From: a virus | Strand: one strand, 5' to 3' | Length of the DNA: 64,000 nt | IMG/VR virus record: IMGVR_UViG_3300050821_017626 | Coordinates: 32,262 to 96,261 of that record | The notes under the pieces: generated by a model | Told to the model about the DNA's origin: nothing | Seen by the model: the letters and a program-made list of their open reading frames with translations, nothing else | Database searches by the model: none | Made by a program: the position numbers and the translations under genes | Shown here: positions 5,028-57,897 of the stretch, in pieces | How positions within the stretch are numbered: the stretch's first letter is position 1 | Layout of the letters: each line of letters starts with the position of its first letter

Positions 5028-5036
5028 GGTGTCGTT

Positions 5037-6480: not shown

Positions 6481-6664
6481 TGAGGTAACCCGAGATGGGA
6501 GATCCAACTAGATGCTTTCAGAAACCATTGCCCCTCGCAAGATCGTCAGCGAACGACGGAAACAGAGCAAACGTGATTGGTCAAGAGAGAACCTCCGCAG
6601 CCCGAACTGCAACCATTCTATCAAGTGTTATGGCCTTTGTCCACACACCATTACCACCAACCCT

Positions 6665-6693
6665 TGACTTTGGCACATTTCTTGCCTACAATA
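6665..6693 (+). promoter_or_regulatory. Sigma70-type promoter TTGACT-N17-TACAAT
   Basis: Directly upstream of GGAGG RBS and ATG at 6713. Confidence 0.7.
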
Positions 6694-6712
6694 CTTGGGA
6701 GGACATTGGCGT

Positions 6713-7311: not shown

Positions 7312-7320
7312 AAACTGAAC

Positions 7321-7587
7321 ATGACGATTCATGTAGAACGAAGCCACATAATGGGTTCCGAGCCTCGCAGCACTACCATGTGTCCCATTGCCCGCGCCCT
7401 ACAAGAACAGATTCCCGGTCAAGGGACTTGGTGCGTGTGGCTGAACAAAGCGGCTCTGTGGCCCGGCAAAAGTTACGATCTGCCTACGACAGCCGTAGAT
7501 TTTATCAAGGATTTACTGGATGGAAAGTCAGTGAAGCCGTTCCTGTTCACCCTGGAAGAATCCCATTATGCGTACGATCACAGATAA
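7321..7587 (+). CDS. Hypothetical protein, CPIAxAL family
   Basis: IHVERSHI...CPIARAL...LP...FIKDLLDGKSVKPFLFTL. Confidence 0.7.
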   Translation: MTIHVERSHIMGSEPRSTTMCPIARALQEQIPGQGTWCVWLNKAALWPGKSYDLPTTAVDFIKDLLDGKSVKPFLFTLEESHYAYDHR

Positions 7588-8067
7588 AGAGATAAACAGC
7601 GATACTCCTCCTCCCGACTTTGGGCCACGACGGTGTATCGTCTGTGGTTGTCGTTTCTGGTGTTGCGACGACAAACCGAACTGCCCGCTCTGTGGAGGAT
7701 TCGCCCAAGACGAAGAATTTCTAGCGTGCAGGCGGCAGCAGCACAGGCTAGAGGAGCACAATTAATGGCAGGGGAAAGAACAATGGAACTAAACGAAGAG
7801 GACATTTACAGCGAGATCATCCTCGAAGAAGAGCAGCGACACATGTATGTCACTGCCACTCGTTGGGGATTGGAGTTCTACTGCAAAGAGTTTATCGAGG
7901 ATGAAGTAGCCTGGTACTCCCTCTCTTGGGCCGAGGTTCCCGCCTTTATGGCCCACCTGCAGAAGATTGTTGAAAAGTGGCAACCTAAAGAAGAAACCGG
8001 TCTCTCCAAGGCTATCCACAAAGCGCGCGGTGGGGATGCCCCCACGCCAAGGCAGGGGTTTGCGTAA
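7568..8067 (+). other. Small ORFs 7568-7765 (Zn ribbon CIVCG/CPLCG) and 7765-8067
   Basis: Coupled ORFs. Confidence 0.55.
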
Positions 8068-9517: not shown

Positions 9518-10332
9518 GTGGAGGGACCCATGCCAAACAAAGAACCCCGCCGCGTCTTGGATCTCCCACTCTGGGATGGCCCGCCAGACACGCTGCCTTG
9601 CGGCTGCAGTTGCGAACTGACCTTGGGTGACAAGCACGGGCCTGTGTTTTGGAATCATTGGAATAAGGTTTGCCAATGCCACAAGTGTGGTCAGGTATAT
9701 ACTCCCTTCGCACCGCAAAAGGTCGAAGCCGATGAAGACTAACTATCGGGGCTTCACCATAAACGTCGAGCGCGAAAAATGTCTGGCTGGGCATTCAATG
9801 CTCTATTGGACGGTCATCCGAGAGGCGGATGGGTGGTTCTTCGAAGACAACTTTGCCGACACTGAAGATACCGCCCAAACGATTACTCAAGCAATGAAGC
9901 ATCGCATCGATGACTACTTCCTCCATCCAGAGGATTACGAGGACTGCCCTGTCTGCGATCAGCCGCACCCATGTGAGTGTGGTATCAACGACGAAGATGA
10001 TGAGAATGAATGAAACCCGACGGCTGGAGTAAAAACAGTTGATCTACATATTCTTCGGGGGCGAATATGAGCAACGCTGGCCCGTAGCCGTGTTCGAAGC
10101 GCCGGAAGGCGTTCACGTCGACTACGCAGCCTTCCTTCATGCACTTGGCGTTCCTCCCTTCCCCATCTGGAAGGGGGACGTGAAGCAATGGGACCTCGAA
10201 CGAACACGATGGAATTTGGACCGAGATAGGGTTTTCGCTCTCAAAGGAATTACCGATGCAGAAAGCGCCCATCGCCAGTGGTTGGAGAACCACCCGCAGG
10301 TGAAGTCCCTGCCTTTTGAGTCCTGGGACTAA
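9518..10332 (+). other. Small ORFs 9518-9742 (Zn ribbon), about 9732-10013, 10039-10332
   Basis: Co-oriented ORFs after the plus-strand promoter. Confidence 0.55.
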
Positions 10333-10361
10333 TGTGATAGAATATATTTGGAGGAAACACA

Positions 10362-10541
10362 ATGAAATTTGCCGATGATTTTCTTACATCGAAAACAACC
10401 ATTACTGCTTTCGTAACCATCATCACCTCGATCTTTGCGGCTTACCACCATCAGATAACCTGGCACGAAGCGCTGCTCACCGTTGCTGCAGCCGCCCAGA
10501 CCGCCTTCCTTCGGGATGCTTTCGTAAAATCCGCGAAGTGA
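10362..10541 (+). CDS. Small membrane protein, holin-like (59 aa, below the ORF-track cutoff)
   Basis: GGAGG RBS; MKFADDFLTSKTTITAFVTIITSIFAAYHHQITWHEALLTVAAAAQTAFLRD has two hydrophobic segments. Confidence 0.5.
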   Translation: MKFADDFLTSKTTITAFVTIITSIFAAYHHQITWHEALLTVAAAAQTAFLRDAFVKSAK

Positions 10542-13913: not shown

Positions 13914-14112
13914 GGTATCGTTCCTTTGTTGTAAACGTCTTGTGATAGTCGTTCGAAATAGAGAGGATGAGCCAGTCGTAGGTAGGTTCTCCCTACTCGA
14001 TAGTGGATGGCAAACAGGAAATTGTAGACGGGAGTTGGCCAGCAATCCAGGTCGAGAATCCAGTTGATGAAACCAACTGCAGAACTGGTAAGGGTGATAG
14101 CAGCGTGTTTCA

Positions 14113-14352
14113 TTACTCCCATTTCTGAAATACATCGCGGCCACGCACACTATTCTGCAGTTGTTCCCGCGCTGCGGCCTCGCGCTCGCGGCGGCGGTTT
14201 TCGGGCCAAGTCACAACGGCCCAGTAGACAACGAACAAAACAAGAACTGAAATCAGAAATAGGGCGAATTCCGTAGTTTGTATCACCAGGTGGTCAAGTC
14301 GGGTCTGTGCCAGGTAAGGGGTTGAAAACGCTTGTTGGATACGGGTCAGCAT
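14113..14352 (-). CDS. Small single-TM membrane protein
   Basis: FALFLISVLVLFVVYWAVV followed by a basic tail; GAGGAG RBS. Confidence 0.55.
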   Translation of the reverse strand: MLTRIQQAFSTPYLAQTRLDHLVIQTTEFALFLISVLVLFVVYWAVVTWPENRRREREAAAREQLQNSVRGRDVFQKWE

Positions 14353-15046
14353 GGTTCTCCTCAAAGGAAAGAGCGCCACTCTGGCGCCCTCAGTAGTCAG
14401 TATACGCCCTTGTCCTGCGCTTTGTTAACCCCTTATTCACCCTTGACATAGGTAATTGTCTTCCGGGATTGCCTCCACGTCCTGCTGCTCCATCAATCGC
14501 GTCCGCTTGCTGATCTCATAGCGATTGCCCTGCGCGGCCCACTGCGCCGTACGGGCCTGAACAAGGGAACTGTCGAGGGTTATGAAGCCTCCGACCTTCC
14601 TGTCTCCCTTGAAAAACTCCACCACATATTCTTCTTGCATCATGCTTCCTTCTTCAAAATGATCCGTCGCTTGTTGGATTGAACAACTTCCCAACAGTCG
14701 GCTCCCAGGACGTTGAGGGCGGTACATAGGTCATCAATACCACAGACACTCACCCCAGTCTCGTCATACCAGCCGACCTCATCCTCGCGGCAGAGGACCT
14801 TGTAGCACCAGCGCGGCATCTAGGGCCTCCCTTGCAGCCGGCGTCCTTGCCGACGAGGAACTGACGGAATCTGTCTACTGCAGGAACCGGGTGTTGCTGC
14901 ACGTCGCACTAACCCAGGTTTGCTCACCAAGATAGGGGCTCGATGTTCCATTGTGTCTTCGCCCAAGGCGCGCTCGTTCCAAGCTTTGCAGATTGCCCGT
15001 GAGTAGGCTAAGAAAATCTCATTTATCTCGTGTTGTATTGGATTGA

Positions 15047-15283
15047 TCATGGCCGACCCTTCATCGCCGCGTCCCGGTAGGTATCGGCTGCCTTGCGACC
15101 TCGCTTTTTGGCCCTGATCGAGCCCGATCCAGGCGGCATCGCGCCATCACTCCCCGGAGCTGCGCCGGTCTTTGCCGACAACTCCGTTCCTGGCTGCCAG
15201 GAGCCAGCAGGCCCATCTTGGTCCAAGACGTTAACACATTCGGTGAGACCGGACCAGTCTACCGCGAAATCAAACTCTTCCAT
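15047..15283 (-). CDS. Small acidic-leader/LxQ/basic-tail protein (putative capsid internal protein)
   Basis: MEEFDF...VLDQ|DGPAG...KKRGRK. Confidence 0.65.
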   Translation of the reverse strand: MEEFDFAVDWSGLTECVNVLDQDGPAGSWQPGTELSAKTGAAPGSDGAMPPGSGSIRAKKRGRKAADTYRDAAMKGRP

Positions 15284-15284
15284 G

Positions 15285-15551
15285 TTATCCCTCCGCCGGA
15301 AGCCGCTTTTGACGGATCACCTTGAAACCGTGACCCTGTTCGCGGAACCAGAAGATATCGTTCACCGCGTTGTGTATCTCGTAGATAAGCACCCCGCGTT
15401 CTACAGGCGTGAGGGCCATGGCGCGATCACATGCCATCCAGGAATCGAGGTAGCGATTGAGCACCCCGTCCAACGCCTGGCCGCTGTCCCACAAATCCCG
15501 GAACAGGGGGTCCTCCGCCCGCATCTCCTCCAGGTGTTCTTGAAAGGTCAA
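15285..15551 (-). CDS. Hypothetical protein
   Basis: ORF within the operon; GGAGG upstream. Confidence 0.6.
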   Translation of the reverse strand: MTFQEHLEEMRAEDPLFRDLWDSGQALDGVLNRYLDSWMACDRAMALTPVERGVLIYEIHNAVNDIFWFREQGHGFKVIRQKRLPAEG

Positions 15552-15555
15552 GTCG

Positions 15556-15771
15556 CTACGCCTCCTTCAGCCGGCTAGGCTTCTTCGCATCCTTGAGGGC
15601 CAGAGCCCCTTTCTTGCGCAATTTGGTGGCCGGCGGGTTGTATTGCTCTCCGCTGGTTCGAGTTACCATGCGCCCCATCGTGGGAGAGATTGGATTTCCG
15701 CCGCCTGGGATGGAATCAGGAAAGACGTTATCCTGGTACAGGTCTTCGAAGGAGGGCCACTCGAACATCAC
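15556..15771 (-). CDS. Small acidic-leader/LxQ/basic-tail protein
   Basis: FEWPSFEDLYQ|DN...KLRKKG. Confidence 0.65.
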   Translation of the reverse strand: MMFEWPSFEDLYQDNVFPDSIPGGGNPISPTMGRMVTRTSGEQYNPPATKLRKKGALALKDAKKPSRLKEA

Positions 15772-22970: not shown

Positions 22971-23065
22971 CTGTTTCCCTCTCCACGATCTAACTTGTGC
23001 CGTTATTGGCTACACTCATAGTAGCATAAACCGTGCCAAATAAAGGGTTTGGAGCTATATTACTG

Positions 23066-24841
23066 ATGGCAAAACCAAATACGAATCCGGGAACAGATAT
23101 CTCCCCCATCCCTAGCCAAACTCCGTTGCCAACCATTGGTTTCATCAGGAAGCTTACGCAACGCATTACTACCATACTGCTTGGCCGGGACATAACCACG
23201 TATCCACAGGTCCTTGGGAACACATCTGAGACTGGCGCTTCCGACGCAAGCTACCAAAGCTTCACGAACCCTTTCTGGAGAATTAACTACGAAAGGCGTT
23301 CCATAGCCATGGATTTGAGGGATCAAGACATGAACGACCCTCTTATTTCCACGGCGCTAGATGTGATTGCGGACTGCGCCACAGGCATGGAAAATCCTGC
23401 AGAAGACGCCTTCATGTGGCAGTTCGATCAGAACAACCCTGCTGCCGAGAAAATTCTGCAAGAGATGAAGATACGCACGGATTTGGGGCATGAATGTTGG
23501 CGTATCGTTCGTGGGTTTGTCCGTGACGGGGAAGAGTTTCGTGAGGTCGTGGCGGATGAATCCTATACCATACGTCGCTTTAAGTTCCTCCCCAATTATC
23601 AAGTGACCCCTTCTCTTGACCCTTACGGCAATAAAAGTCCGGGGTGGGAGCAACGCTTAGACGGTGCGAATTTCGGGCGCCCTATTCTGTTTGCCGAATG
23701 GCAGATATGCCCTTTCATCTATGGAGCCCGACGAGGGTACTACGGAACGGGCTTGATGATGCCAGCCCGAAGGACCTGGAAACGCCTTACCAAGATGGAA
23801 GACGGTATGGCGATGGCTCGTATGATACGGGCTTATGATCGTCTTGTTCACCATATTCCTGTCAAAGAGGAGTGGGACGAGCGGCGGCAACTCGATAAGG
23901 TGCGCAATTACTATCAATCTATACTCCGTAGGCGCGGCATTGATCAGGACAACAACCTATTCTGGCGTGAGAATCCCTATCAGGTAGAAACGGACTTCTT
24001 TCTTCCGCAGGACGGCAGCGAGAGAGCCAAGATAGAGATTCTTGAGTCGAAGAACAATCAGTTGATGAATATCGACGACGTTCTTTATCATCAAGCGTTA
24101 TTGTTGGCTAGAACAAAGGTGCCCGCAAAGTATCTCAATTTGGTACGTAAGTCAGGCGCCCTCATCGATGCCAACCTTTCCGCTGAGGACATTCAGTTCG
24201 CTCGCACCCTTCGCCAAGTGCAGGCCGTCCTCCGCCAAGGACTTCTTCGTCTAGCCCACTACGCACTTGCGTTTCAGGGTTATGATGCTGACGCCATCGG
24301 AGTAGGGGTGATTCTTCCAAAGATTTCAACGGAAGATCAACTCCGCGACGCTAAAATTCAGTTCACCGCCTCGCAAGCAGCTCTTACCTTTTCACAGGTA
24401 CTTCCCCACGGCCTGCCACCCGACCTGATTGCTAACAAGTACATGTCGCTCGGCCCCGACGACAAAAAGATCCTCGCCGAATGGATCGCCGCCGGAGACG
24501 AGACCCATGCCGAACTCCATCGCCAGATGGGCATCATCATCCCTGATAGCAAAATTCCAGGCGCCCCTGGAGCCCAGAACTTCAAACCCTTCGCCAAACC
24601 CGGCATGGCCGGCGATGATGGGGGCGACGACGAGGATGGAGATGGCGGAGACGATGCTACCCAGAGCCAGGTAACCCTGGATCAGGTGGCGCAATCGCTG
24701 ACCAATCTGCAACTTCTGGCGCAGCAGGAGATGGAGAAGCGGGGCAGCCGGTTCAAAGTAGGTCGTGCCGAGCGTCTCGACAACACCCGGCGGATTCTCC
24801 AAGAAATCATGGATGAGGGCCATGCTGGCAGCACTCTCTAA
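23066..24841 (+). CDS. Portal protein (T4 gp20-like)
   Basis: DPLISTALDVIAD, YYGTG, WKRLTKMEDGM..AR..RA.DR, TDFFLP, EDIQFARTL match T4-type portal motifs. Confidence 0.88.
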   Translation: MAKPNTNPGTDISPIPSQTPLPTIGFIRKLTQRITTILLGRDITTYPQVLGNTSETGASDASYQSFTNPFWRINYERRSIAMDLRDQDMNDPLISTALDVIADCATGMENPAEDAFMWQFDQNNPAAEKILQEMKIRTDLGHECWRIVRGFVRDGEEFREVVADESYTIRRFKFLPNYQVTPSLDPYGNKSPGWEQRLDGANFGRPILFAEWQICPFIYGARRGYYGTGLMMPARRTWKRLTKMEDGMAMARMIRAYDRLVHHIPVKEEWDERRQLDKVRNYYQSILRRRGIDQDNNLFWRENPYQVETDFFLPQDGSERAKIEILESKNNQLMNIDDVLYHQALLLARTKVPAKYLNLVRKSGALIDANLSAEDIQFARTLRQVQAVLRQGLLRLAHYALAFQGYDADAIGVGVILPKISTEDQLRDAKIQFTASQAALTFSQVLPHGLPPDLIANKYMSLGPDDKKILAEWIAAGDETHAELHRQMGIIIPDSKIPGAPGAQNFKPFAKPGMAGDDGGDDEDGDGGDDATQSQVTLDQVAQSLTNLQLLAQQEMEKRGSRFKVGRAERLDNTRRILQEIMDEGHAGSTL

Positions 24842-25920: not shown

Positions 25921-28905
25921 ATGCCTCTCCCCGAGAGAACCGTAAAAATAGTCGATGCTAGTGGCAACGACATTAATTCACTGAATCCGCTTCCCACAAC
26001 GGGCGGAGGCGGCGGTGGTGGTGGCACGTCTCAGGCGGACAACAGCACCTTTACTGAAGGGACTACAAGCGTCACCCCGATTGCCGGTGAATACAATACC
26101 TCGGCAGGCGCGGCCACCTCGGGAAAAGCGGCAGCGGTTCAGATCACCCAGAATCGTGGCCTCCACATCAATCTCCGCAACGCGGCCGGGACGGAAATTG
26201 GCACGGTGGCCAACCCAGTGCAGGTGGCCGGAATCAGTGGCGGCGGGTCCTCTTCGGTTTTTGCCTCTCAGGTGGGAACCTGGAATGTTGGCATCACGGG
26301 CACAGCAGCCGTTACCCAGTCGGGAGGCTGGACGGTCTCCGCCAACCAGGGAACCGCAGCCGCTAAGTCTTCCGCGTGGCCGTTTATCCTTACCGACAGC
26401 GTTCAGAATCAGGCGGGTATCACTGCAGCCGGGGCGCTCAAGGTCGACGGCAGCGCTGTTACGCAGCCGGTATCAGGGACGGTGACAGCCAACGCTGGCA
26501 GCGGAACTTTCACTGTTGGTGGAACGGTGACGGCAAATGCGGGTTCAGGCACTTTCGCCATTCAGGCCACTGCTGGGGCGCCTGCCTCCGCGCAGCTTTC
26601 TGATGGTGCTGCCTTCTATGTTGCCGCAAAAACGGGACAACTCCCGACCGCTTTGACGGGCAGCGGCAATTTGAAGGTATCGCTGGCAGAAAGCACGGCA
26701 ACGCAAGCCGTTAGCGGGACCATCACGGCTAACCAGGGAACGGCGGGTGGATCTTCCTGGCCGGTAGCCTTGCCGGGCACCGTTTCTGCGGTCAACTCCA
26801 CGACCGTTACTCTCCCTAGCAGCAGCGTTTTTACCGGAACGTCCGAAGACATTTCCGGCTTTGCCTCTGTGGCCGTTTCGGTATTTACCGACCAGAACAG
26901 TGCGGCCGGCGGTCTTTCCCCACAGTTCTCCTCAGATGGCACCCACTGGGATTTCGCTGGCTCCCACACGATCTCTTCTTCGATTGGACAGGTATTTACC
27001 TGGCCGGCACAGGCTCGTTTCTGGCGAATTGTCTACACGAATGGAGCACAAACGCAAGGAACGTTCCGCCTGCAGACGGTTTATCATCCTGTTGAGATCA
27101 GTCCGGCTACCCGCTACACTTTGCAGGATGGGGATGCTAACGTTAGCACCATGCGGTTCGGTGCCAACCTTTGTGCCCTGAACACTTCGTCACAGTGGGA
27201 TCGGATGCGGGGGTCGGTTACAGGAGGCTTGTGGGTTCAGGGTCCGGCGGTAACCGGAGCGCCGGTTGCTGGGAACCCAGTCTATGTGGGTGGTAAGGAT
27301 GGGAGTGGAAACCTACAACCGTTCACCATTGCCAACAGTCGCCTCGACGTAAACGTTGGTAAAATTCCCGGCACCATTTCCGCAGTCAACTCCTCGACGG
27401 CAACCTTGACCTCCGGCTCCGCTTTTACTGGCACTTCGGAAGATGTGTCGGGATATGGGTCGATCACGATCAACGTTTTCGCGGATCAATCCTCGGCCGC
27501 AGGTGGTCTCTCTCTACAGTTTTCTTCAGACGGGACCCATTGGGATGTCTCAATGGGCCTTACTGTAACTTTGAATGTGGGAGCGTCCTACACTGTTGCT
27601 CCCGAGGCTCAGTTCTTTAGGGTTGTATATACGAACGGCGGCACCAACCAGGGAACATTCCGGCTGCAGACGGTTTACCACCAGACAACGGCTCAGCAGT
27701 ATACATTCTTCCAAGATGTAAACGCCTCCATAAACCCCACTGCAGCGGGTCAGCGAGTGATGGCTGATCTTCTTATTCAAGATCCCGTGGGCGGGGTGAC
27801 GAACCGGGCGCGAGCGGCGATTGCGTTGGTAGCGGGCGTGGGTGGTGGAGCGCACCTGGGGCAGGCAGCGGCTCTTTACGATATCAGTTCCACTAAATTT
27901 TGGCCGATGGAGAATACTCCTTCGGTGACGGCTACAACGGGGCAGAACCTGCTGGGCGTCGGGCCTTGCCTTTGGGATCTTGTGGGCACCACGAACTTCG
28001 TCAAGCAGGCCGGTGATGGTTCCGGGAGGACCATGGTGGTGGGGCCGGCGGCTATCGGCGCGGCGGCAGCAGCGAACCCGGTTCTTCCAGGCATAACTGA
28101 TGCCAGCGGCAACGTGCAGTATGTCAAGCAGACTACGGCAGTTACCGGGACGACGGGTTTGGGGCTGGCGGCGGCGGGACCGTGCCTTTGGGATCTTGTG
28201 GGCACCACGAGCTTTGTGAAGCAGGCGGGAGATGGGTCGGGCCGGGCAATGGTAGTTGGTGCGGCAGCGGCGGGTTCAGCGGTGGCAGGGAACCCGGTGC
28301 TCCTGGCCGGCAGTGATAATACCAACGCTCAAACTCTGTCCACGACAACCACTTCTGGCGCAGCTATCCCCAACAACGGCAAGGGCATCTTGGCGACTGC
28401 CTTGTGCAGCTTTCATAGCTCCAGCACCTATTTCCCAGCGGGCGATTTCCAGGCAGATGGAAACAACTCACAGGGGATGATCGGGGCGCAGCCTCTCATT
28501 TATAATGGCGTCAACTGGGATCGGCCCCGGAACAACGTCGATGTTACTCTGCTGGCCTCCGCCGCGCGCACTACCACGCAGACGAGCGCGGATATCGTGG
28601 CCTATAATTGCCAGGCCATTATCTTGACTCTTGATGTCACCGCTACGGGTGGCACGATAAGTTTGACACCGACGATCAATTATAAAGACCCCGCAAGCGG
28701 GAAGTACATTCAATTGCTGGCCGGAACCACCGTGGCGGCAACAGGAACGACAACGTATGTGATCGATCCGAGGTTGGTGAGCGGAACCCCTCCCTGGACG
28801 AAGACGGTTCCTTCGGCGTTAGGTAGGATCTTCCAGGTGGTAATTACGGTTGGAAATGCGAATTCACAGACCTACAGCGTAGGTTATACGCTGGTGCCCA
28901 CATAA
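25921..28905 (+). CDS. Large Gly/Thr/Ser/Ala-rich virion structural (fibre/decoration) protein with internal repeats
   Basis: Two copies of an approximately 105-aa domain (SAVNS..T.TL...FTGTSED...QFSSDGTHWD...FRLQTVYH) and two of GPCLWDLVGTT.FVKQAGDGSGR. Confidence 0.7.
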   Translation: MPLPERTVKIVDASGNDINSLNPLPTTGGGGGGGGTSQADNSTFTEGTTSVTPIAGEYNTSAGAATSGKAAAVQITQNRGLHINLRNAAGTEIGTVANPVQVAGISGGGSSSVFASQVGTWNVGITGTAAVTQSGGWTVSANQGTAAAKSSAWPFILTDSVQNQAGITAAGALKVDGSAVTQPVSGTVTANAGSGTFTVGGTVTANAGSGTFAIQATAGAPASAQLSDGAAFYVAAKTGQLPTALTGSGNLKVSLAESTATQAVSGTITANQGTAGGSSWPVALPGTVSAVNSTTVTLPSSSVFTGTSEDISGFASVAVSVFTDQNSAAGGLSPQFSSDGTHWDFAGSHTISSSIGQVFTWPAQARFWRIVYTNGAQTQGTFRLQTVYHPVEISPATRYTLQDGDANVSTMRFGANLCALNTSSQWDRMRGSVTGGLWVQGPAVTGAPVAGNPVYVGGKDGSGNLQPFTIANSRLDVNVGKIPGTISAVNSSTATLTSGSAFTGTSEDVSGYGSITINVFADQSSAAGGLSLQFSSDGTHWDVSMGLTVTLNVGASYTVAPEAQFFRVVYTNGGTNQGTFRLQTVYHQTTAQQYTFFQDVNASINPTAAGQRVMADLLIQDPVGGVTNRARAAIALVAGVGGGAHLGQAAALYDISSTKFWPMENTPSVTATTGQNLLGVGPCLWDLVGTTNFVKQAGDGSGRTMVVGPAAIGAAAAANPVLPGITDASGNVQYVKQTTAVTGTTGLGLAAAGPCLWDLVGTTSFVKQAGDGSGRAMVVGAAAAGSAVAGNPVLLAGSDNTNAQTLSTTTTSGAAIPNNGKGILATALCSFHSSSTYFPAGDFQADGNNSQGMIGAQPLIYNGVNWDRPRNNVDVTLLASAARTTTQTSADIVAYNCQAIILTLDVTATGGTISLTPTINYKDPASGKYIQLLAGTTVAATGTTTYVIDPRLVSGTPPWTKTVPSALGRIFQVVITVGNANSQTYSVGYTLVPT

Positions 28906-30010: not shown

Positions 30011-30454
30011 ATGAATCTGCAACCTCACGACCTCCATCTCGTCTTCAATCCCAAGACGAACCATCTGGCCATCTGGGACGCCAACCACCATCAGGTGCTA
30101 GCATGCGAGGCGCACAACCGAACGGTGGCTGATGGGCAGTTGGGTCATTTTGGCAATTGTCCCGCTGGGGAGTTCTTGCTAGGAGAACCAATAGTCAAGA
30201 ATACGGTTCCTTTTGGGCCTTTCTTTATTCCAGTCCTTGACTATCTCAACCACCATACGATGCGAGACTTTCATCGGGAAGGGATTGGTATCCATGGGGG
30301 CGGAAGCGGGCTGCCCCATCCCTTCATGGGGCGACAAGGCTGGGTCGAGACCGAGGGCTGCATCCGGGTTCAAAACGTAGACTTAGGATCAATTGTAACG
30401 TTGGTCAGAATAGCGCAGAAGAAAACCGGAAAGTGTTACTTGACGGTTATTTGA
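30011..30454 (+). CDS. L,D-transpeptidase (YkuD) family protein, candidate lysis enzyme
   Basis: CPAGEF...FGPFFI...IGIHGGG...TEGCIRV with catalytic His and Cys. Confidence 0.85.
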   Translation: MNLQPHDLHLVFNPKTNHLAIWDANHHQVLACEAHNRTVADGQLGHFGNCPAGEFLLGEPIVKNTVPFGPFFIPVLDYLNHHTMRDFHREGIGIHGGGSGLPHPFMGRQGWVETEGCIRVQNVDLGSIVTLVRIAQKKTGKCYLTVI

Positions 30455-30967: not shown

Positions 30968-31951
30968 GTGAACCTGCAATTGCATAAGGGAACTACTAGC
31001 AAGATCAGAAGGTTTTTTATCAAGAATAGCTCGGTCACGACGGGAGCAGGGCTCACGGGTCTCGTTTATAACAGTTCTAACCTGATTGCGTATTACATCC
31101 GTGAAGGAGACGCCACGGCAACGGCGATCACTCTTGCAGCCGGCACGGTTGGCACCTGGAGCAGCGGCGGCTTCAAGGAGGTGGATGCAACCCATCTTCC
31201 CGGCGTTTACGAATTGGGGCTGCCGGATGCGGCGCTGCTGACCGGAGCAAATAGCGTTTTAGTGATGCTCTCGGGCGCGACGAACATGACGCCCGCATGG
31301 GAAGAGATCCAGTTGACGGATACGGACGTGAACGACGCGCAGCATTTCGGGTTAACGGGTCTGCCGAGCCTGGGCACGGACAGCCGCGTCCTCGTCTCTG
31401 GGGATGCTCATACGGCCGGGGTTTCGGTGACAGTGGGGATCAACAACGACAAACTGAATTACGGCCTCTCGATGCTGGAAAGCCTGGTGGTGCAGAGCGG
31501 CATGGCGCAGGGCGCGACTGCCACAACGCTGACCTTGGGAGGCCATCCGAGCGCGATCAACGATGAATACAAGCGGAACGTGGTCCGCATTTATTCCGGC
31601 ACCGGAGCTGGACAAGCGCGCACCTTTACGGCCTATGATGGTTCGACCGGCACTGGCACCGTGAATAGTCCGTGGGTGACCGTTCCCGATACCACTTCGA
31701 TCTACGCGGTTATGGCGTTCGATACCGGGGCGCTGGATCTCACCGCCACGGCTTTTGGCGAGCCGACGACGGCACCTCCGGTCAACGCTTCCCTGAAAGA
31801 CAAGATTGGCTGGCTGTATACGCTGGCGCGCAATAAGGTGACCCAGACTTCCCAACTGCAGTCGGTGCGCAACGATGCCGATACGACGAGCATCTCCACG
31901 GCAGCGGTGGGCGATGATAATACAACGTTTACGCGCAATCGCTGGAGTTAG
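30968..31951 (+). CDS. Conserved phage structural protein
   Basis: TTGAGLTGLVYNS...SSGGFKEVDAT..PGVYEL motif recalled from uncharacterised virion proteins. Confidence 0.7.
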   Translation: MNLQLHKGTTSKIRRFFIKNSSVTTGAGLTGLVYNSSNLIAYYIREGDATATAITLAAGTVGTWSSGGFKEVDATHLPGVYELGLPDAALLTGANSVLVMLSGATNMTPAWEEIQLTDTDVNDAQHFGLTGLPSLGTDSRVLVSGDAHTAGVSVTVGINNDKLNYGLSMLESLVVQSGMAQGATATTLTLGGHPSAINDEYKRNVVRIYSGTGAGQARTFTAYDGSTGTGTVNSPWVTVPDTTSIYAVMAFDTGALDLTATAFGEPTTAPPVNASLKDKIGWLYTLARNKVTQTSQLQSVRNDADTTSISTAAVGDDNTTFTRNRWS

Positions 31952-31953
31952 CG

Positions 31954-32301
31954 ATGTTGAACAATCGCAACAACCGGGCCAGCGCCGTGCAGGTAGGACT
32001 TCCCTACCGCATGGCGCTGCCGTTTCCCGCCGGGGTAATCAACCGCACCCAGCGACAATTTCTCGGCAGCGCCTACGCAGGGATCGTGGTGACCGCTACT
32101 CCCTTTGTGGCCCGCGACGAGCGGTTGAGCACCTTGCAGTTGACCCTTCCTTACCGCATGGTTCTCCCTTTTCCCTCGGGGACGATTGCGGCTCCACAGC
32201 GCCAATGCCTGGGGGCTGCTATTTCTATGATCCCCACTCCTCCGCCGATCACCCCGCCACTTGGACCGCTCGTCAACTATAAGGCGACGGTCGATGGCTG
32301 A
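31954..32301 (+). CDS. Small structural protein with a duplicated LPYRMxLPFPxG..I...QRQ.LG unit
   Basis: Internal repeat visible in the translation. Confidence 0.65.
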   Translation: MLNNRNNRASAVQVGLPYRMALPFPAGVINRTQRQFLGSAYAGIVVTATPFVARDERLSTLQLTLPYRMVLPFPSGTIAAPQRQCLGAAISMIPTPPPITPPLGPLVNYKATVDG

Positions 32302-32677
32302 TTTCACTGATTTTAGTATTACCCTTACCAGGGGAGACACCCGCCGGTTCCGCTTCACGGTCAAAGATCCCTCGACCGGGGCCTTGGCGGATATCACGAC
32401 GTGGCAAAAATTCTGGGTGACCGCTCGCTACAATACCTGGGACAGCAACGCCGCGCCGGTCTTTGTGCTAACCAGTGACAGCCAGGGATTGGCGCTGATT
32501 GATCCGGTGAACGGCCTGGTCGAGGGCACGCTTTCCCCCACTCATACTGCCGGGCTCACTTCACAGGAGTGGATCTTATACGGAGATATTCAGGGTAAAG
32601 ATGGCGCCGGCAATATCTGGACTATTTCCAGGGGCCACTTTATCGTTTTGCCGGATGTGACTTTCGTTACCAGTTGA
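32294..32677 (+). CDS. BppU-N-like Ig-fold structural protein
   Basis: LTRGDT..F.FTVKD...DIT...G.V...LSP..TA.L...YGDIQ...G.F.V.PDVT. Confidence 0.65.
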   Translation: MADFTDFSITLTRGDTRRFRFTVKDPSTGALADITTWQKFWVTARYNTWDSNAAPVFVLTSDSQGLALIDPVNGLVEGTLSPTHTAGLTSQEWILYGDIQGKDGAGNIWTISRGHFIVLPDVTFVTS

Positions 32678-32688
32678 GGGTGATACGG

Positions 32689-35600
32689 ATGGTTTCAAAG
32701 ATCAGGGCATTGTTGGTCATCATTCTTTTGACGTTTTTTGTCAGCGGCGCAGCCGGGGCTTATACGCCCTTTTATGAGATGACAGCCCCCACGCGGCTGG
32801 GTTCGATGACCAGTCTTCTGGGGGGCCATGTCGATACCGGGACGGGGGCCTTTTGCTATCGGAATCATCTTTCCACCGTTTTGGGATACATCAATCTCAA
32901 CTCGGATATCATTTTCAATTCTCAAGACCGCAGCGCCGGGCCTTTTGGTATCGGGACCTCTACCAGCTATGATTGGTTTGTGGTTAAGTCCGTGCTCTGG
33001 CCGGGGCAGCCGTGGGTCTTGATTGGTCCTGGAAACCGTCACTTCATTTTCGACCAGGGAGGGAGCGGCAACTTTGTTGATCCTCGGGACGCCCAATTTC
33101 TGGGGGCTTCGCTTTCTTTCAACGGTCCCCCCTCCGGTAGATTGTGTACCCTGACTTTCAAGAACTGGGAGCGTTGGGAGTTTGATCTTTCGGGGGGCCT
33201 AGTCACAATCCACACCCATTGGACGGATTATGGCTGGAACACGATAAACATCACCCGCAACGCAAACGGTTTTCCCGTCGACATCACCCAATCGACCAGC
33301 CCCACCTGGCGAGGGATCGAATATACCTATGGGGGCTCGCCGCTCACGTGTACCAACGTCACGAACTGGTATAATTGGGTCTCGAACGCCAGCCCTGGAA
33401 TTACCAGGCCATGGAACTTCACTTATAGTGGGGGCAATACCCAGATTGCGACGATTTCTGATCCGGCTAATCGGATCTCGCGCCTCAATTGGACTGGCTA
33501 TACTCGCTCCGACGGAGCGCTGCTGCCCCTCATCAGCAGCATGGTGGATAACCGGGGCAACACTGCGGTATCGATTACCTATGATTCCTCAGGGAGAGTG
33601 ACGAATACCACCCTTCCAGTGAGTGGCTCGCTGGCTTTCAGTTATTCCGCTCCGCTTGGCAGTGATGGCTATACCCAAATTGTTCAGGCGAACGGCGACA
33701 CCAAACGAAATAACTTTCAATGGTTAACGGCACATCACGGCTATTTGATTACTTCCACGACGGATGTCACGCTGGGTGAAACGACGACGATTGAGCACAG
33801 TGCTGTTTCGAGCGTTTATCCGACGATCACGACTTATCTCCCCTCGGCGGTGGTTGATTATTTAGGACATCGCTCCACCGTGTCCTGGGATACAAAGCTC
33901 GGCAATCTGTTATCGATGACTTATCCGGCCCCCACGGGAGGCACGGCGACCCTAAGTTATCAGTATGATGCGGTCTACAATGAAGTTGCCGTTAGTACTG
34001 ATCCACTCGGAAATCGGTCCACCAGAGTTATTAATCCGCATACGGGCGACGTGACCAGCACGACCGACCCGTTGGGGAATGTGACCTCCCATACGTATAA
34101 TTCAGCGGGAGCCTGCTTGTCAACCACGGACCCCTTGGGCTATACAACCTCCTATAGTTTTGATACAAACGGGGTCCTCGTCTCTACTGTCGACGCGCTG
34201 AATCATACCACTTCCTACACGCGGGATGTTCTCGGTCAGTTGACGAATACCACTGATGCTTTGGGGCGCATGATATCCTTTGTCTATAATCCGTCGGGGA
34301 CGATCCAGAGTAAGACGGCCTTGTATGGCCCTAACCCAATCACTGAGTCCTCCACGTACGATGCCAACGATAATCGGATCTCGTCAACGAGCCCCAACGG
34401 CACGGTTTGGTCTTATTCCTACGATTCTGCCAACCGAATGGTCCAGTCCACTGACCCTCTGGGGAATAGCAAGCACTGGATATATAACCCCGATAACACA
34501 CAAGCAAGTTATCAGGACGCTATTGGTCAGCGGTTCGAGAACACTTACGATAGTGCGGGGAGATTGACGCTACAAAACTTTAAATTGGGTAATGGGAGTA
34601 TTGAGTCGAGTATCACCTATACCTATGACCCCACAACCCATTTGGTGAGTAGTTACACAGATAGCGCGATTGGTTCGCCCACCAGCCTGACCAGAGATAG
34701 CTTCCTTGAAAACACCAGTGTCGTGCAGCCGTATGGCACCATTGGTCAGACGTACGATATCCTGGGAAGAGCGTTAACGAAGACGGTAACGGGACAGGCG
34801 GGAGTTACCTATCATTATAACTCGCTCGGGCAGATGGATACGGAGACCCAAAACGGACAGACAACCACCTTTTTATACGACAAGGTAGGACGACTGATTC
34901 AGCAGAATTTCCCCAATGGGGTCATCAACAAGCGAACCCTCGATGGCAATGGGAGGGTTATCCGGGCGACTTCCACCAGTGGTGCTTCGACGATTAGCGA
35001 TACGGTCTACACCAGAGACGCGGCGGGAAACATTAGTACCTCCCAAGAAAACGGCGGGGCGGTTTTCGCTTATTCGTATGACTATGCTAACCGGCTAACG
35101 CAGATATCCCAGGTTGGCGATTCTCGGGGGGATGGATATCCAAGTTATGGCTTTCAGTATGACGTAGTAGGCAACAAGGTGAAGGATTTCAGTAATCCTC
35201 CCGGAGTTCAATACAGCAGCAATCTCTATTCTTACGATTCCGCGAATAATCTGGTCGCCATTAACGGTTTCGGCGTTTATAATGATGCGAACGGGAATCC
35301 CTATCAAGCGCAGAATAGATTTGGTGGTAGTTTTATCGCTAATTACACCTGGGATGTCAGGGGAAGACTGGTTGCCTTTAGCTATGGTTCCCAGGTTTAT
35401 AGCTTCAAATATTTTTCCAGCGACATCCCTGCACAACAAGTAATAAACGGGACAACGACCAATTTTGTGAGAACGGGCAGTGATATTTTAGCGGACATTA
35501 CCAACGGGATCACAACGACCACTCTCAACAGCCCGGTTTTTGGTCAGCCGCTGAACCGGGGCGGCATGTGGCAGTCGACCAATGGAACGGGAAGCACGAA

Positions 35601-36531
35601 GGCGACAACGAATGGCAGTGGGTCAGTTGTCAATACTTATACCTATACTCCTACGGGGGTGTCTACCCAGTTAGGAAATGGTTCTGGAACGCCCTTTCAG
35701 TTCAATCGAACCTACAATACCGGCGCGACTGGAGTCTATCAGTCTGGGTCAAGAATCTACGATCCAACCACTGGCAACCTTTTGGGGAGGCCAGGTGGTG
35801 TTCCCCATTCCCAGGGAACGCCTTCTGTTCCCAACCCAATGGCGAGCGTCCAAGGATGGAACCCGCCTAGTCGAAAATTGGTAAATCGCGTCCTGGGAAT
35901 GATAGGCTCAACGGTACTTTTAGGAGCAGCCGGAGATTTCCCAGAAGTTAACTCCGTAGGCGGAGTGAATGCGCCTGACATAACTATCGCTCCCTCAAGA
36001 GCGCCAACGACTGTCAGTGTAGCTGGCCGTAGTGTAACTTTACCTCCATCCAATAGAACTATCCTGCCATTGCCGGCGCCGCCGCCCCCTCCTGCCGGTC
36101 CTCACTATGGGTTGGGATTGAGCAATGCAGGGGTGGATGCGATGGAGCATGGGTGGGGTGGACTGGATGATTTCCGGGCACAAGTGGGCGGATGGTCGCC
36201 CGGCAGCCGGGGAGGACCGTGGACGATCCCGACGAATTTGGCTGGCGCAGGAAAGATTAGCTTTGAACTGGCGGGTCTTAACTGGCAGACGGCGGTCTTA
36301 GCGGATGAAGATATAATGTTTTCCAATAATGTGACGAATGTTGAGTTCCAGATGTCTATTTCCCCTTCCATGTGGGATCGGGTTGAGTGGTACCTTTATG
36401 GGGTCAGAGTTGATAATCCGTTTGCGATGAGCCCTATTCCCACGTCACAAGCAACTCCTCCCCCCGGATATGCCGGTGGACCGGGAAGTGATCCGTGGGG
36501 CAACTATCCGAGCGGGCCAGGAACCGAGTGA
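32689..36531 (+). CDS. RHS/YD-repeat protein with signal peptide and putative C-terminal toxin-like domain
   Basis: N-terminal hydrophobic signal; DUF6531-like VDTGTG...GPFG; many TDPLG..T.Y.YD repeats; core end TGVYQSGSRIYDPTTG; Pro linker then C-terminal domain. Confidence 0.9.
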   Translation: MVSKIRALLVIILLTFFVSGAAGAYTPFYEMTAPTRLGSMTSLLGGHVDTGTGAFCYRNHLSTVLGYINLNSDIIFNSQDRSAGPFGIGTSTSYDWFVVKSVLWPGQPWVLIGPGNRHFIFDQGGSGNFVDPRDAQFLGASLSFNGPPSGRLCTLTFKNWERWEFDLSGGLVTIHTHWTDYGWNTINITRNANGFPVDITQSTSPTWRGIEYTYGGSPLTCTNVTNWYNWVSNASPGITRPWNFTYSGGNTQIATISDPANRISRLNWTGYTRSDGALLPLISSMVDNRGNTAVSITYDSSGRVTNTTLPVSGSLAFSYSAPLGSDGYTQIVQANGDTKRNNFQWLTAHHGYLITSTTDVTLGETTTIEHSAVSSVYPTITTYLPSAVVDYLGHRSTVSWDTKLGNLLSMTYPAPTGGTATLSYQYDAVYNEVAVSTDPLGNRSTRVINPHTGDVTSTTDPLGNVTSHTYNSAGACLSTTDPLGYTTSYSFDTNGVLVSTVDALNHTTSYTRDVLGQLTNTTDALGRMISFVYNPSGTIQSKTALYGPNPITESSTYDANDNRISSTSPNGTVWSYSYDSANRMVQSTDPLGNSKHWIYNPDNTQASYQDAIGQRFENTYDSAGRLTLQNFKLGNGSIESSITYTYDPTTHLVSSYTDSAIGSPTSLTRDSFLENTSVVQPYGTIGQTYDILGRALTKTVTGQAGVTYHYNSLGQMDTETQNGQTTTFLYDKVGRLIQQNFPNGVINKRTLDGNGRVIRATSTSGASTISDTVYTRDAAGNISTSQENGGAVFAYSYDYANRLTQISQVGDSRGDGYPSYGFQYDVVGNKVKDFSNPPGVQYSSNLYSYDSANNLVAINGFGVYNDANGNPYQAQNRFGGSFIANYTWDVRGRLVAFSYGSQVYSFKYFSSDIPAQQVINGTTTNFVRTGSDILADITNGITTTTLNSPVFGQPLNRGGMWQSTNGTGSTKATTNGSGSVVNTYTYTPTGVSTQLGNGSGTPFQFNRTYNTGATGVYQSGSRIYDPTTGNLLGRPGGVPHSQGTPSVPNPMASVQGWNPPSRKLVNRVLGMIGSTVLLGAAGDFPEVNSVGGVNAPDITIAPSRAPTTVSVAGRSVTLPPSNRTILPLPAPPPPPAGPHYGLGLSNAGVDAMEHGWGGLDDFRAQVGGWSPGSRGGPWTIPTNLAGAGKISFELAGLNWQTAVLADEDIMFSNNVTNVEFQMSISPSMWDRVEWYLYGVRVDNPFAMSPIPTSQATPPPGYAGGPGSDPWGNYPSGPGTE

Positions 36532-36883: not shown

Positions 36884-36930
36884 GCAACGGCGAGGGTTGG
36901 CGCCATTTCTTTGCGCCAGCCCTCGATAAT

Positions 36931-36993: not shown

Positions 36994-37013
36994 TTGACAG
37001 ATCGGTATATAAT
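36994..37013 (+). promoter_or_regulatory. Short-spaced promoter TTGACA-N8-TATAAT
   Basis: Upstream of the ndk-capsid operon. Confidence 0.6.
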
Positions 37014-37061
37014 ATTAGTAGGGCTAATAGACTGATTTCCCCGTTTTCCCGAGACACCCCC

Positions 37062-37544
37062 ATGGCTATTGAGCGCTCTTTCAATTTAATCAAGCCCTTG
37101 GGGGTCGAGCGCAACCTTGTAGGCTACATCATCAAGAAGTTTTCCATGAAGGGCCTGCAGTTGACGGGCCTGAAAATGGTGCAGCCAACGCGGGAAATTG
37201 TCGCCCAGAACTACATCGATAACAAGGACGAGCCTTTTTACAACGATCTGGTGGATTACGTCTCCAGCGGCCCCGTGGTGTGCATGATCTGGACCGGGGA
37301 GAATGCGGTCGAGTCGGCCCGCCAGGTAGTTGGCGACAAGAATCCCCTGAAGAGTGATGTTGGCTCCATTCGTGGCTCCGTGGATAATAGCGCCGTCAAG
37401 AATGTTATTCACGGCGCTAGGACGCCGGAGGAAGCGGAGCGAGAAATATTGCTCTGGTTTGGGTCAGTTGGTCCACCCCCGCTTTACGAAGCAATGCCTG
37501 CTGCAGTCGCTGAAGCTTTCCCGCAGTCGATTAAACCTTCTTGA
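37062..37544 (+). CDS. ndk: Nucleoside diphosphate kinase
   Basis: ERSFNLIKP, PFY, SGPVV, SIRG, NVIHG (catalytic His), EREI..WF. Confidence 0.96.
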   Translation: MAIERSFNLIKPLGVERNLVGYIIKKFSMKGLQLTGLKMVQPTREIVAQNYIDNKDEPFYNDLVDYVSSGPVVCMIWTGENAVESARQVVGDKNPLKSDVGSIRGSVDNSAVKNVIHGARTPEEAEREILLWFGSVGPPPLYEAMPAAVAEAFPQSIKPS

Positions 37545-41289: not shown

Positions 41290-41372
41290 GATTGGTCTGA
41301 ATGTTGCATACAGGGTAGTAGTTGGGTATAGTTGAAACCAACTACTGCTCTGTGCGCAACAGGAGGATCAAG

Positions 41373-42182
41373 TTGACGACCTTAACAAAGAAGTGTCCAT
41401 CGTGTATAGTAAAGTCGGCAAACGAGTTCTACTCTGATAACAGTAAGCCAGATGGGCTTTCTGCTTACTGCAAAGCCTGTCGTGAAAAGACAAGACGAGA
41501 AAAGCGGATTGCCAAACAATTAGCTAATCCAAAGCCTCCAAGAATTACAGAGTGGCCACCTGAAACTTTGAAGGTCTGCACCTTCAAAGAGGGTTGTGTC
41601 AAGCCAATATCAGAGTTCTATAAGGCAAAGGCTGGCAAGTACGGCGTCCATAGTTATTGCAAGGAGTGCGCAGGCGAGTTTCAGCGACTAAACATAGCAA
41701 AGAGAGTGGAGAAGTATAAGCCAGTAACTGAAGGGCACAAGTATTGCGCTGGATGCAAACAAGATCATTCAGTTTCAGATTTTACTCCCCAGAAGGGAAG
41801 CCCCAGTGGGTTGCACCATTACTGTAGGGTCTGTCAGGCAAAAAAACGGCAGGAAATGAGATATGAAGTACTGTGCCATTACTCCGACGCAGACTATCCT
41901 CGGTGTGAGTGCTGTCACGAAACCATACTTGAATTTCTGTCGATAGATCACATTCATGGTGGCGGGGGCAAGGAACGCAAACAGATACGTGGTACCAATT
42001 ATTATGGCTGGCTAAGGAGTCACGGGCTTCCCGCCGGCATGCGCGTTTTGTGTCATAACTGCAACCAGTCCTTTGGATTCTATGGATATTGCCCTCACCA
42101 ACGAGAGGAAACACATCTTTGTCTCACGAATACGTCCGCAATACATCCACCATCAAGCAATGCCTTGGTCACTTCGCCCTAG
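41373..42182 (+). mobile_element. HNH homing endonuclease with repeated Cys-ribbon domains
   Basis: Three KxCxxC...F...CKxC units; LSIDHIHGGG...LCHNCN. Confidence 0.85.
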
Positions 42183-45473: not shown

Positions 45474-46757
45474 TCATTTGCCAGCCCTCTTTTTTCCAGA
45501 GGGTGTGAATAGGGCTTCTTCCGGCGACCATCCTAGTTCAACGATGCGCCTCCTAACGGTGCCGACATCTATCCCAACTTTTTCGGCCCAGTCATTCAGG
45601 CAGAGTGTAGTTTCTCCAATAGTTATGAGGTGATTTCTTCTTGTGTTCCTGTTTTGAACAGCCTTCGTAACCCATCGTACGTTATCGGGATAGTATCCTC
45701 TTTCGTTGTCGATGCGATCCAACGAGTGGGCTGGCGATGGCCGCTTTCCGACATCCCTTTTGAAGGCTTCGAAAGATGAGATCCATTCAGGGTATATCGT
45801 CAATCCTCGCCCTCCATAGTGTTGATAGGATCGATCCTGAGGATTTAAACACCTGCCCTTGATATTTTGCCAAGCCTGATATTCTGCCGTTTTTGTCTTG
45901 GATGTGCCTTCTGTCTCGGCTTTCGCTTTGTGTACTGGCGTAAATATGGCTTCTTCCTCGGTCCACCCTAATTTGTGAATTCGTGTCGAGATAGTGCCCT
46001 GTTTAATACCTACAAGGAGCGCCCAGTCTGTAAGATAGTGGGTTTCCCCATCGATGGTGATCTTTCGGTTCCCTCTTTGGTTTCTTTGTTGCTCGACCTC
46101 TGTTGCCCAGTGACAGTTGCCGGGAAAGTATCCCAAGTCGTTGTTAATACGGTCCAAAGTATATTCGAGAGAGGGTCTTGGACCAACGTCGTTTAAGAAC
46201 GTCTCGAAAGAATCGATCCATTGTTGGCACATGGTAATGCCTCGGCCTCCGTAATCCTTATATTGCGGATTGTTGGGGTTTGAGCAGCGTTGCATTATCC
46301 CCTTCCAGATGCGATATTCGCTTCTCATCTTGCCACGCTGCGAGGCTCCATGCCTCCAGTTTTTGGCAGCGACCATTTCAGATTTCATGCAACCACAAGA
46401 CGAGGTTGTGCCGTGAACTAAATTGTAGACGCTGACTGTTGCCTTGTTCCCACAGTCGCAGACACAATCCACCTTGTTGTTTCCGGGAACGGGTTCAGTT
46501 AACAGGGTCAATCTTCCATACTTTTGTCCCACTTCGACAAAAACCGTTCTCTTGAGACATCCGCAGGACTTTACCCTTCCCTTCAAGAGGTCGCATTCTT
46601 GAGTAATCTTTGTGTTCCCGCAGTCGCAGAGACATTTGACTTCCGAGCGAGTGTTTTTCGGATGGCCAACGACCGTTAGTAACCCGAAGCGTTCGCCTAC
46701 GGGGAGAAGATACGTCTCCTCTTCGGCCGACCCATGTTGTTGTGTTGCCTGTTTCAT
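45474..46757 (-). mobile_element. HNH homing endonuclease with duplicated domains, antisense to the tail operon
   Basis: Two GRLT...C.CDCG...SCGC units and two YGGRG...LDRI(N/D)N..GY.P.N..W units. Confidence 0.88.
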
Positions 46758-56820: not shown

Positions 56821-56841
56821 CTTGCATTGACAGTGTTTGCT

Positions 56842-57897
56842 ATGGATGACAAGGAAGAAAAATTAAAGAAACGACGAGAGATACAAAAGAGGTATCGCGA
56901 TAATAACAAAGAGAAAGTTAGAGCTTCCAACAAGAAATACAGGGATAATAACAAAGAAAAGATAAACGCTTCTGCTAGAGAATACAGACGTAAAAACATA
57001 GAGAAAGTACGTTCTTATAACTATCAGTATGTCAAGCAATGGAAATTACTCAACCCTGACAAAGTTAAGGCGTCACGGATGCGAGAAAAGGAAGCCATTT
57101 CCAAAACTCCCGAGATCCTAAAACAAAGAAAACAAGATTATTATAAAAGGCACAGGGAAGAAATTCTTCTGAAGCAAAAACTTGCCAACGCTGGTAATGA
57201 ACGGCGCTCTCTAAATAGCCGAAAACAAAGATTGAAGATCGAATTTGGGTTATCTTTGTCGGATTACGAAGATTTACACGAATCACAAAATGGCGTATGT
57301 GCCATCTGTAGTCAACCAGAGACGGCAATGTATTATGGTGGAAAAAGTAAACTGGTAGCCAGCAGAGTTAAACAATTGGCGGTGGATCACGATCATGCGA
57401 CCGGAGCCGTACGGGGCCTACTTTGTTATAGATGTAATCGTGCTGTTGGATTGTTTCGCGACGACATCCAGTTGGTCATGCGAGCCCTAGAATACTTAAG
57501 CCGCACCTCTGGTGGTGTTTTAATTCCAGATGGGGTTAAAGTGTCACAGGAAACTAGAAATAGAATACTGCGCAACGTAGGTGAGAACTGGGCTTACAAT
57601 ATTAAGAAAAAATATAACATCACTGTCGATCAGTATCTAGGTTTGTATCAACTTCAAAACAGTGGATGTGGTATTTGCAACGTTCCAACATCAAACCACA
57701 AGAATAAAAGCGAAGGAGTGCTCGTTGTCGATCACAATCATTCCAGTGGCACGGTCAGAGGGCTCCTTTGTCGACTTTGTAACTTAGGTTTGGCTTTTTT
57801 TGACGACGAGATTCTAAAACTAGAAAAATGCCTTGAATATCTTAGAAGGTATAGAAAGCAGCAGAATGAAGTCGAGGATAGAGCCGAATCGCTCTGA
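56842..57897 (+). mobile_element. Endonuclease VII-family homing endonuclease with two EndoVII domains
   Basis: Q.G.CAIC...LAVDHDH.TG.VRGLLC..CN and CGIC...VVDHNH.SG.VRGLLC.LCN; AT-rich. Confidence 0.9.

Follow-up and report, generated by a model that had tools for sequence, protein, structure and literature searches.

An RHS shell protein with a decayed self-cleavage motif and an orphan tail among the late genes of an uncultured soil phage

The stretch of DNA considered here, hereafter the window, comprises 64,000 nucleotides (bases 32262-96261) of a 96,261-bp linear virus record, IMGVR_UViG_3300050821_017626 in IMG/VR, which stems from an uncultured soil phage and is 79% complete according to CheckV. 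Among the late genes of this phage lies a gene for an RHS protein, a type of gene that is rare in phages, with matches in 21 of 50,697 phage records. The protein combines a predicted signal peptide, a YD-repeat shell in which both catalytic aspartates of the self-cleavage motif have been replaced, and a tail without a recognisable family. It is probably no longer a classical RHS toxin, judging from these sequence features. The gene and its immediate surroundings are laid out as follows, in window positions and with residue numbers of the RHS protein.

32676-32680, + strand: Shine-Dalgarno sequence GAGGG, 8 nucleotides before the ATG at 32689 and overlapping the preceding gene's stop codon (32675-32677)
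32689-36531, + strand: RHS open reading frame (ORF) of 1280 residues, confirmed
32689-32760, + strand: predicted Sec-type signal peptide, residues 1-24, with a predicted cut AGA/YT, by Kyte-Doolittle hydropathy and the (-3,-1) rule
32821-32982, + strand: DUF6531-like segment, residues 45-98 (PF20148, 23.6 bits, just below the cut-off of 24.1)
32986-35787, + strand: YD-repeat beta-cocoon shell, residues ~100-1033, including the intact first half of the C-terminal plug (residues 984-1033)
35752-35871, + strand: decayed aspartyl-protease motif, residues 1022-1061, by MAFFT and a custom hidden Markov model (HMM)
35878-35934, + strand: hydrophobic segment, residues 1064-1082, the second most hydrophobic window of the protein, directly behind the former cleavage site
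35920-36102, + strand: linker, residues 1078-1138, with a GD-P-VNSVGGV motif followed by a proline run, by phmmer
36103-36438, + strand: orphan C-terminal segment, residues 1139-1250, without family or homologue and modelled by AlphaFold2 (AF2) at a predicted local distance difference test (pLDDT) score of 20-35
36439-36531, + strand: Gly/Pro-rich tail, residues 1251-1280, and the stop codon
36581-36883, + strand: ORF of 100 residues behind GGAGG, an orphan whose resemblance to small phage proteins is borderline
36891-36925, + strand: perfect 13-bp G+C-rich hairpin, 8 nucleotides past the ORF stop and without a T-run (-31.6 kcal/mol, z -4.1, 0 of 200 shuffles as stable)
37006-37023, + strand: TATAAT-containing block, ~45 nucleotides before the start of the nucleoside diphosphate kinase (NDK) gene, conserved in the relative L003, by alignment

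The RHS gene begins 12 nucleotides downstream of the stop of the preceding gene. Its product opens with K4 and R6, a 12-residue hydrophobic run, ALLVIILLTFFV, and then AGA/YT, so that n-, h- and c-regions can be read in the sequence; the signal peptide was called by this rule. The region is also the most hydrophobic 15-residue window of the entire protein (Kyte-Doolittle 2.66). The RHS protein would thus be exported through Sec. The following DUF6531-like segment weakly matches a family present in most RHS homologues. No cell-wall or surface anchoring domain was matched by Pfam in the 1280 residues, and the closest PHROG is phrog_10385, of unknown function, with no structural PHROG family among the matches.

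The shell is recognised by the profiles RHS_repeat PF05593 (E 7.8e-36, in five stretches) and YD_repeat_2x TIGR01643 (E 1.4e-20). An AF2 model of residues 81-1280, built on an input alignment of 25 sequences, has a pLDDT of 70-94 from residue 81 to ~1035 and falls to 20-35 beyond. When this predicted model was compared with the PDB by Foldseek, the effector RhsA (7q97) of a type VI secretion system (T6SS) was matched at E 6.6e-48 over ~1070 aligned columns, with a TM score of 0.58 on the target. Matches to complete Rhs cocoons span ~1000-1100 aligned columns, and further matches include the Advenella and Salmonella bongori Rhs proteins, Tse5, RhsP, teneurins, TcB-TcC and the bacterial teneurin-like protein 9ifo (E 1.5e-40). 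The shell is complete in the predicted model, a closed beta-cocoon, because the model aligns with whole Rhs cocoons.

Canonical Rhs, TcC and bacterial teneurin-like shells end in a bipartite DPxG-X18-20-DPxG aspartyl protease with an upstream arginine (PMC8636562; PMC13018210), the role of the arginine being described in PMC13018210. In Rhs1, exchanging D for N in the second motif stops cleavage and makes the protein less toxic (PMC8636562). The motif is absent from mammalian teneurins and kept by bacterial teneurin-like proteins (PMC13018210). In the MAFFT alignment of the phage protein the first DPxG reads R1034-P-G-G and the second N1058-P-P-S, with 20 residues between them. The upstream arginine is retained as R1022, SRIYDP aligning with the arginine of RxRYYDP, and an NxYxY segment is deleted. 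With the core-end profile TIGR03696 the score is 15.5 bits, where the cut-off is 32.5, and only profile positions 1-44 of 76 align. A custom core-end HMM of 84 positions was built from the 72 canonical core ends that the 119 nearest homologues provide: its end is reached by 111 of the 119, at a median score of 78.8 bits, and aspartate occupies position 52 in 114 of them and position 79 in 109, whereas the phage protein aligns with positions 1-50 only (residues 984-1033, 13.9 bits). A frameshift behind the odd core end was ruled out, as a canonical end is missing from the other two frames too, both of which are crowded with stops.

The plug therefore looks like a case of selective loss of catalytic residues on a retained scaffold, and the protein is best read as non-cleaving, because both catalytic aspartates are replaced and the motif spacing and upstream arginine are kept. 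A sequence-only reading of this locus is partly borne out by these results. It had described a signal-peptide RHS protein with a complete YD-repeat shell inside the late operon, which agrees with the N-terminus, the profile and Foldseek matches, and the position of the gene between the portal gene (23033-24841) upstream and the NDK and protease-capsid fusion genes downstream. Its observation that the core end lacks the canonical aspartates is confirmed as RPGG-X20-NPPS, and the half of its interpretation that proposed a non-cleaving RHS cage gains sequence support.

The tail beyond the former cleavage site consists of 219 residues (22.7 kDa) with 26.5% Gly+Pro. It starts with the hydrophobic segment; reading of the homologues found hydrophobic stretches right behind DPxG in several of them too. 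The GD-P-VNSVGGV motif of the linker (35920-36033) is common to a unit repeated ~9 times in an 1881-residue tail-fibre-like metagenome protein (P0122), a match of E 1e-6 library-wide and 1e-5 pairwise that is weak, as the motif is short and repeat-amplified. Otherwise the searches of the tail were empty. The last 220 residues gave nothing relevant in Pfam, NCBIfam, PHROGs (E<=10) or PDB sequences; phmmer against 1.84 billion representative proteins returned only the protein itself and the 1881-residue repeat protein; the ESM Atlas gave no usable match; and no paralogue of the tail was found in the phage or its relatives. A single-sequence AF2 model of residues 1131-1280 is unusable (pLDDT 34.8).

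The orphan C-terminal segment had been likened to an Ntox27 tip. Ntox27 is an alpha+beta fold with a conserved D, E and RxW (PMC3482391). The family is absent from hmmscan results against Pfam-A (E<=10) for the last 276 and the last 176 residues, and the tail carries DRVEW (R-x-x-W) and no RxW in a comparable setting, motif reading alone being weak evidence. Assignment of the tail to Ntox27 or another toxin family was rejected, all profile, sequence and Atlas searches being empty. The Ntox27-like tip thus has to be dropped, and with it goes the sole positive evidence for the toxin branch of the sequence-only reading; the C-terminus has no detectable toxin homology. In size the tail is at the upper limit of the Rhs cargo range, quoted as <25 kDa (PMC8636562). 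The G+C content at third codon positions (GC3) is 0.59 in the shell and 0.50 in the tail, against 0.58-0.74 for the phage genes compared. None of the genes compared has a lower GC3 or a poorer codon fit than the tail, whose GC3 lies below its GC1 and GC2. The low GC3 of shell and tail is suggestive, and only suggestive, of a foreign origin.

Downstream of the RHS gene the order is the 100-residue ORF, the hairpin, a 178-bp spacer, the NDK gene and the capsid fusion gene. No homologue of the 100-residue ORF was found in 5.8 billion clusters. Against PHROGs it gives borderline matches of unknown function at E 0.011-0.015 (phrog_11946 at E 0.015), and its N-terminal 28 residues resemble an ORF of the same phage at 12208-12408 on the - strand (E 0.018), beyond which no paralogue was found in the phage or its relatives. 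Its GC3 of 0.66 is phage-typical. The proposal that it looks like an ordinary phage gene gains no more than borderline support, from these PHROG matches. In the cluster tables the 100-residue ORF and the DnaN clamp protein are each found on 2 contigs and the RHS protein on 1. The second contig with the ORF and DnaN is probably a product of fragmented assembly, and an exact-DNA scan of viral contigs for it was empty.

The hairpin probably marks the end of a transcription unit. A new unit probably starts before the NDK gene, because the TATAAT block is conserved in the relative; the block probably serves as the promoter of this NDK-capsid unit and bounds the RHS cassette on its downstream side. 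No promoter-like site was found upstream of the RHS gene between 32261 and 32689. The RHS gene and the 100-residue ORF close the late transcription unit on the portal side, ahead of the hairpin.

The relative L003, a 63-kb record whose capsid fusion is 57% identical, is the sole relative with usable flanks. It has homologues of the 327-residue and 138-residue genes upstream of the RHS gene and of the NDK gene, with no RHS gene and no 100-residue ORF at the locus and no PF05593 match in the whole 63-kb record. The RHS gene and the 100-residue ORF are accessory, because L003, the one informative relative, has neither. A search for further synteny relatives returned two loci among viral contigs (one of 4.5 kb), none among GTDB genomes, and only short contigs and the same 63-kb record among metagenome contigs. 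No flanking direct repeats that might be insertion scars were found around the RHS cassette.

The genes around this unit, from the portal gene to beyond the capsid gene, all lie on the + strand. Together with those in the part of the record upstream of the window, which also holds a SNF2 helicase, the main ones are as follows.

23033-24841, + strand: portal
37062-37544, + strand: NDK (E 4e-42), conserved in L003
37780-41289, + strand: ORF of 1169 residues combining ChaB, a T4-type S77 prohead protease, a linker and a Gp23-type major capsid protein
record 4588-5469 and 9732-10403, - strand: two sigma-70-family factors
record 5463-6584, - strand: DnaN clamp
record 13964-15742, + strand: large serine recombinase

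The 1169-residue fusion is conserved at full length in four other contigs (L002, L003, L006 and L008) at 48-57% identity. The best named relatives of the DnaN clamp are from Terriglobia (Acidobacteriota), at 23-28% identity, a weak hint at Terriglobia as the host. The phage may be temperate, because a large serine recombinase is present. For the same reason lysogenic conversion by the RHS gene is possible, although no separate promoter was found for the gene, which lies inside the late structural transcription unit.

Several other genes of the head region are unusual. Two genes past the portal, a 994-residue protein (25921-28905, + strand) has a Diphtheria_C (ADP-ribosyltransferase) match over residues 732-787 at 23.7 bits against a cut-off of 25, and may be a packaged enzyme resembling Alt or the MuF toxins. 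Amid the head genes, a 147-residue protein without a signal peptide (30011-30454, + strand) matches the YkuD (L,D-transpeptidase) catalytic domain at 24.2 bits against a cut-off of 23.4. The 327-residue gene upstream of the RHS gene (30968-31951, + strand) corresponds to one unit of a 1249-residue L003 protein (3839-7588, + strand) with about six copies; head-side operon length thus varies strongly between relatives. The small ORF that follows (31954-32301, + strand) contains two diverged 69-nucleotide direct repeats (31966-32034 and 32113-32181, 71% identical), which encode a repeated LPYRM-LPFP, and a second ORF overlaps it in another frame. Four genes of HNH/endonuclease VII type are scattered in the structural region (41322-42182, 45474-46757 on the - strand, 56827-57897 and 62682-63380), two of which match phrog_374 strongly.

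The nearest sequence homologues of the phage protein have the signal-peptide DUF6531-RHS architecture of WapA-type Sec-dependent toxins, known from B. subtilis WapA and from Chloroflexota, Actinomycetota and Bacillota. The two share the signal peptide, the DUF6531-like segment, the YD shell, a C-terminus that varies and a small ORF downstream. The phage protein differs in having no N-terminal binding or wall-anchor domains, being among the shortest of the set, and in being encoded in a phage head-gene cluster. It has also lost both catalytic aspartates, which are retained in 92-96% of the 119 nearest homologues, and its C-terminus has no toxin family. The best structural matches are T6SS Rhs effectors, among them RhsA (7q97), and the phage protein is in effect a natural double-aspartate mutant comparable with the engineered Rhs1 D1338N and Tse15 D1369N/D1391N (8uxt). 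Unlike T6SS Rhs proteins it has no PAAR, VgrG or clade domain and would be exported through Sec, and the change is natural.

Metazoan teneurins likewise have a YD shell without the DPxG motif (Foldseek E 1e-40 to 1e-32), and their C-terminal region stays attached, as is presumed for the phage protein. In the latter, neither an NHL propeller nor an FN-plug or a Tox-GHH domain was detected. Bacterial teneurin-like proteins (9ifo, PMC13018210), unlike it, keep the motif and cleave. Other phage-borne RHS/YD proteins, from APSE-3, Bacillus phages and the Rhs-family genes recorded for Pseudomonas and Streptococcus phages, are likewise variable cargo of the phages that carry their genes, and all are <27% identical. 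They differ in setting: the APSE-3 YD-repeat toxin belongs to a cassette devoted to toxins in a small temperate podovirus (PMC8579659), and the Bacillus phage YD-repeat proteins are encoded behind the tape-measure gene (PMC9128512). The MuF toxins of temperate phages (PMC5576092) likewise apply polymorphic-toxin logic in the head/packaging module near the portal. They are thought to be capsid-borne and have no signal peptide, whereas the phage RHS protein has a predicted Sec signal and no MuF domain. We know of no report of a decayed protease motif in another phage-borne RHS/YD protein, although no search aimed at one was made.

Taken together, we tentatively favour, at a little short of even confidence, the reading that the RHS gene was acquired and encodes a shell that is exported through Sec, does not cleave itself, keeps its orphan tail tethered and acts at the envelope or outside the cell. 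An accessory RHS gene, gained by horizontal transfer, would occupy the 3' end of the late unit on the portal side in a possibly temperate soil phage, and the minimal protein would be made along with the late genes, exported via Sec and then folded into a closed shell. The 22.7-kDa Gly/Pro-rich tail would stay covalently joined to the shell, as in metazoan teneurins and unlike the cargo that classical Rhs or Tc proteins set free, because the protein presumably cannot cut itself. The uncleaved unit might then act outside the cytoplasm by envelope binding or masking, or as a toxin dependent on a foreign protease. Several points weigh against this account. The low GC3 (0.50) and poor codon fit of the tail also suit young or decaying sequence, and the small orphan ORF right behind the RHS gene occupies the classical place of an immunity gene. 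Loss of cleavage is read from residues and the signal peptide was judged by eye. Furthermore, the protein is a singleton with a best homologue 28% identical, beyond conservation testing or analysis of the ratio of nonsynonymous to synonymous substitution rates (dN/dS), and L003 is the one relative with usable flanks.

In one alternative, the locus is a working polymorphic toxin-immunity cassette with the tail as a new toxin and the 100-residue ORF as its immunity protein. Another protease would release the tail, or release would be unneeded, and the phage would turn the cassette on its host's competitors, either at lysis or in the lysogenic state. We consider this unlikely. In its favour, the succession of RHS gene, small orphan ORF and hairpin is the usual arrangement, both genes are missing from L003, and the tail opens with a hydrophobic stretch, a feature also seen in several canonical homologues. 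Polymorphic toxins normally have orphan regions at the C-terminus (PMC3482391), phage-borne RHS toxins such as the APSE-3 YD-repeat toxin are known (PMC8579659), and the phage has a large serine recombinase. A classical self-releasing toxin is, however, disfavoured because the aspartates are lost, and engineered loss stops cleavage and reduces toxicity (PMC8636562). The tail itself lacks toxin homology, is rich in Gly and Pro and is modelled at a pLDDT of 20-35. The putative immunity gene is borderline-similar to ordinary small phage proteins (phrog_11946) and to an ORF of the same phage, its GC3 is typical of the phage and unlike that of the tail, and no promoter of its own was found.

It is doubtful that the gene is a decaying passenger, that is, a canonical RHS toxin gene that was picked up and whose protease and toxin end degenerated, leaving nothing useful. 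Its singleton status, the decayed motif, the atypical codon statistics of the tail with GC3 below GC1 and GC2, and the lack of a predicted tail fold would all fit. Plain decay is disfavoured because the frame of 1280 codons is intact, in contrast to the other two frames over the tail, which are dense with stops, and because the shell is confidently modelled. Moreover, the loss is limited to catalytic residues, with spacing and arginine retained, which looks like specific inactivation, and phage genomes are usually purged of dead weight. A role as a virion component, with the RHS shell serving as capsid cargo, decoration or adsorption protein, is very unlikely. The gene is co-oriented with the head genes and tightly packed behind its neighbour, other unusual proteins are encoded nearby, such as the weakly ADP-ribosyltransferase-like 994-residue protein, the linker contains a tail-fibre-like motif, and YD-repeat proteins occur in the tail modules of some Bacillus phages (PMC9128512). 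The use of the protein in the virion, which the sequence-only reading had entertained, is nevertheless disfavoured because of the predicted Sec signal peptide and the absence of the gene from L003, where the genes on either side are present. Virions of tailed phages are put together in the cytoplasm, from which the signal peptide would remove the protein, and the only PHROG match, phrog_10385, is to a family of unknown function and not to a structural one.

The case for an exported, non-cleaving shell is a lead rather than a result, drawn from a single sequence of a single metagenomic phage. To our knowledge, RHS shells are almost always self-cleaving toxin containers, and the sole well-known escape is that of the animal teneurins, in which DPxG has been lost. 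A bolder proposal, to which we give a low probability, is that the phage has domesticated an RHS cage: with the self-cleaving plug inactivated, a toxin container would have become a durable exported scaffold on which a new tail is displayed, in a prokaryotic-virus parallel to the teneurin transition. Late in infection, its use could be to hide receptors or cell debris, to keep out other phages or to bind surfaces. A phage-borne shell with an export signal and with natural replacement of both catalytic aspartates would be a second, independent instance of a re-purposed or disarmed RHS cage besides the teneurins, and it would mean that phages carry such RHS genes within their structural operons.

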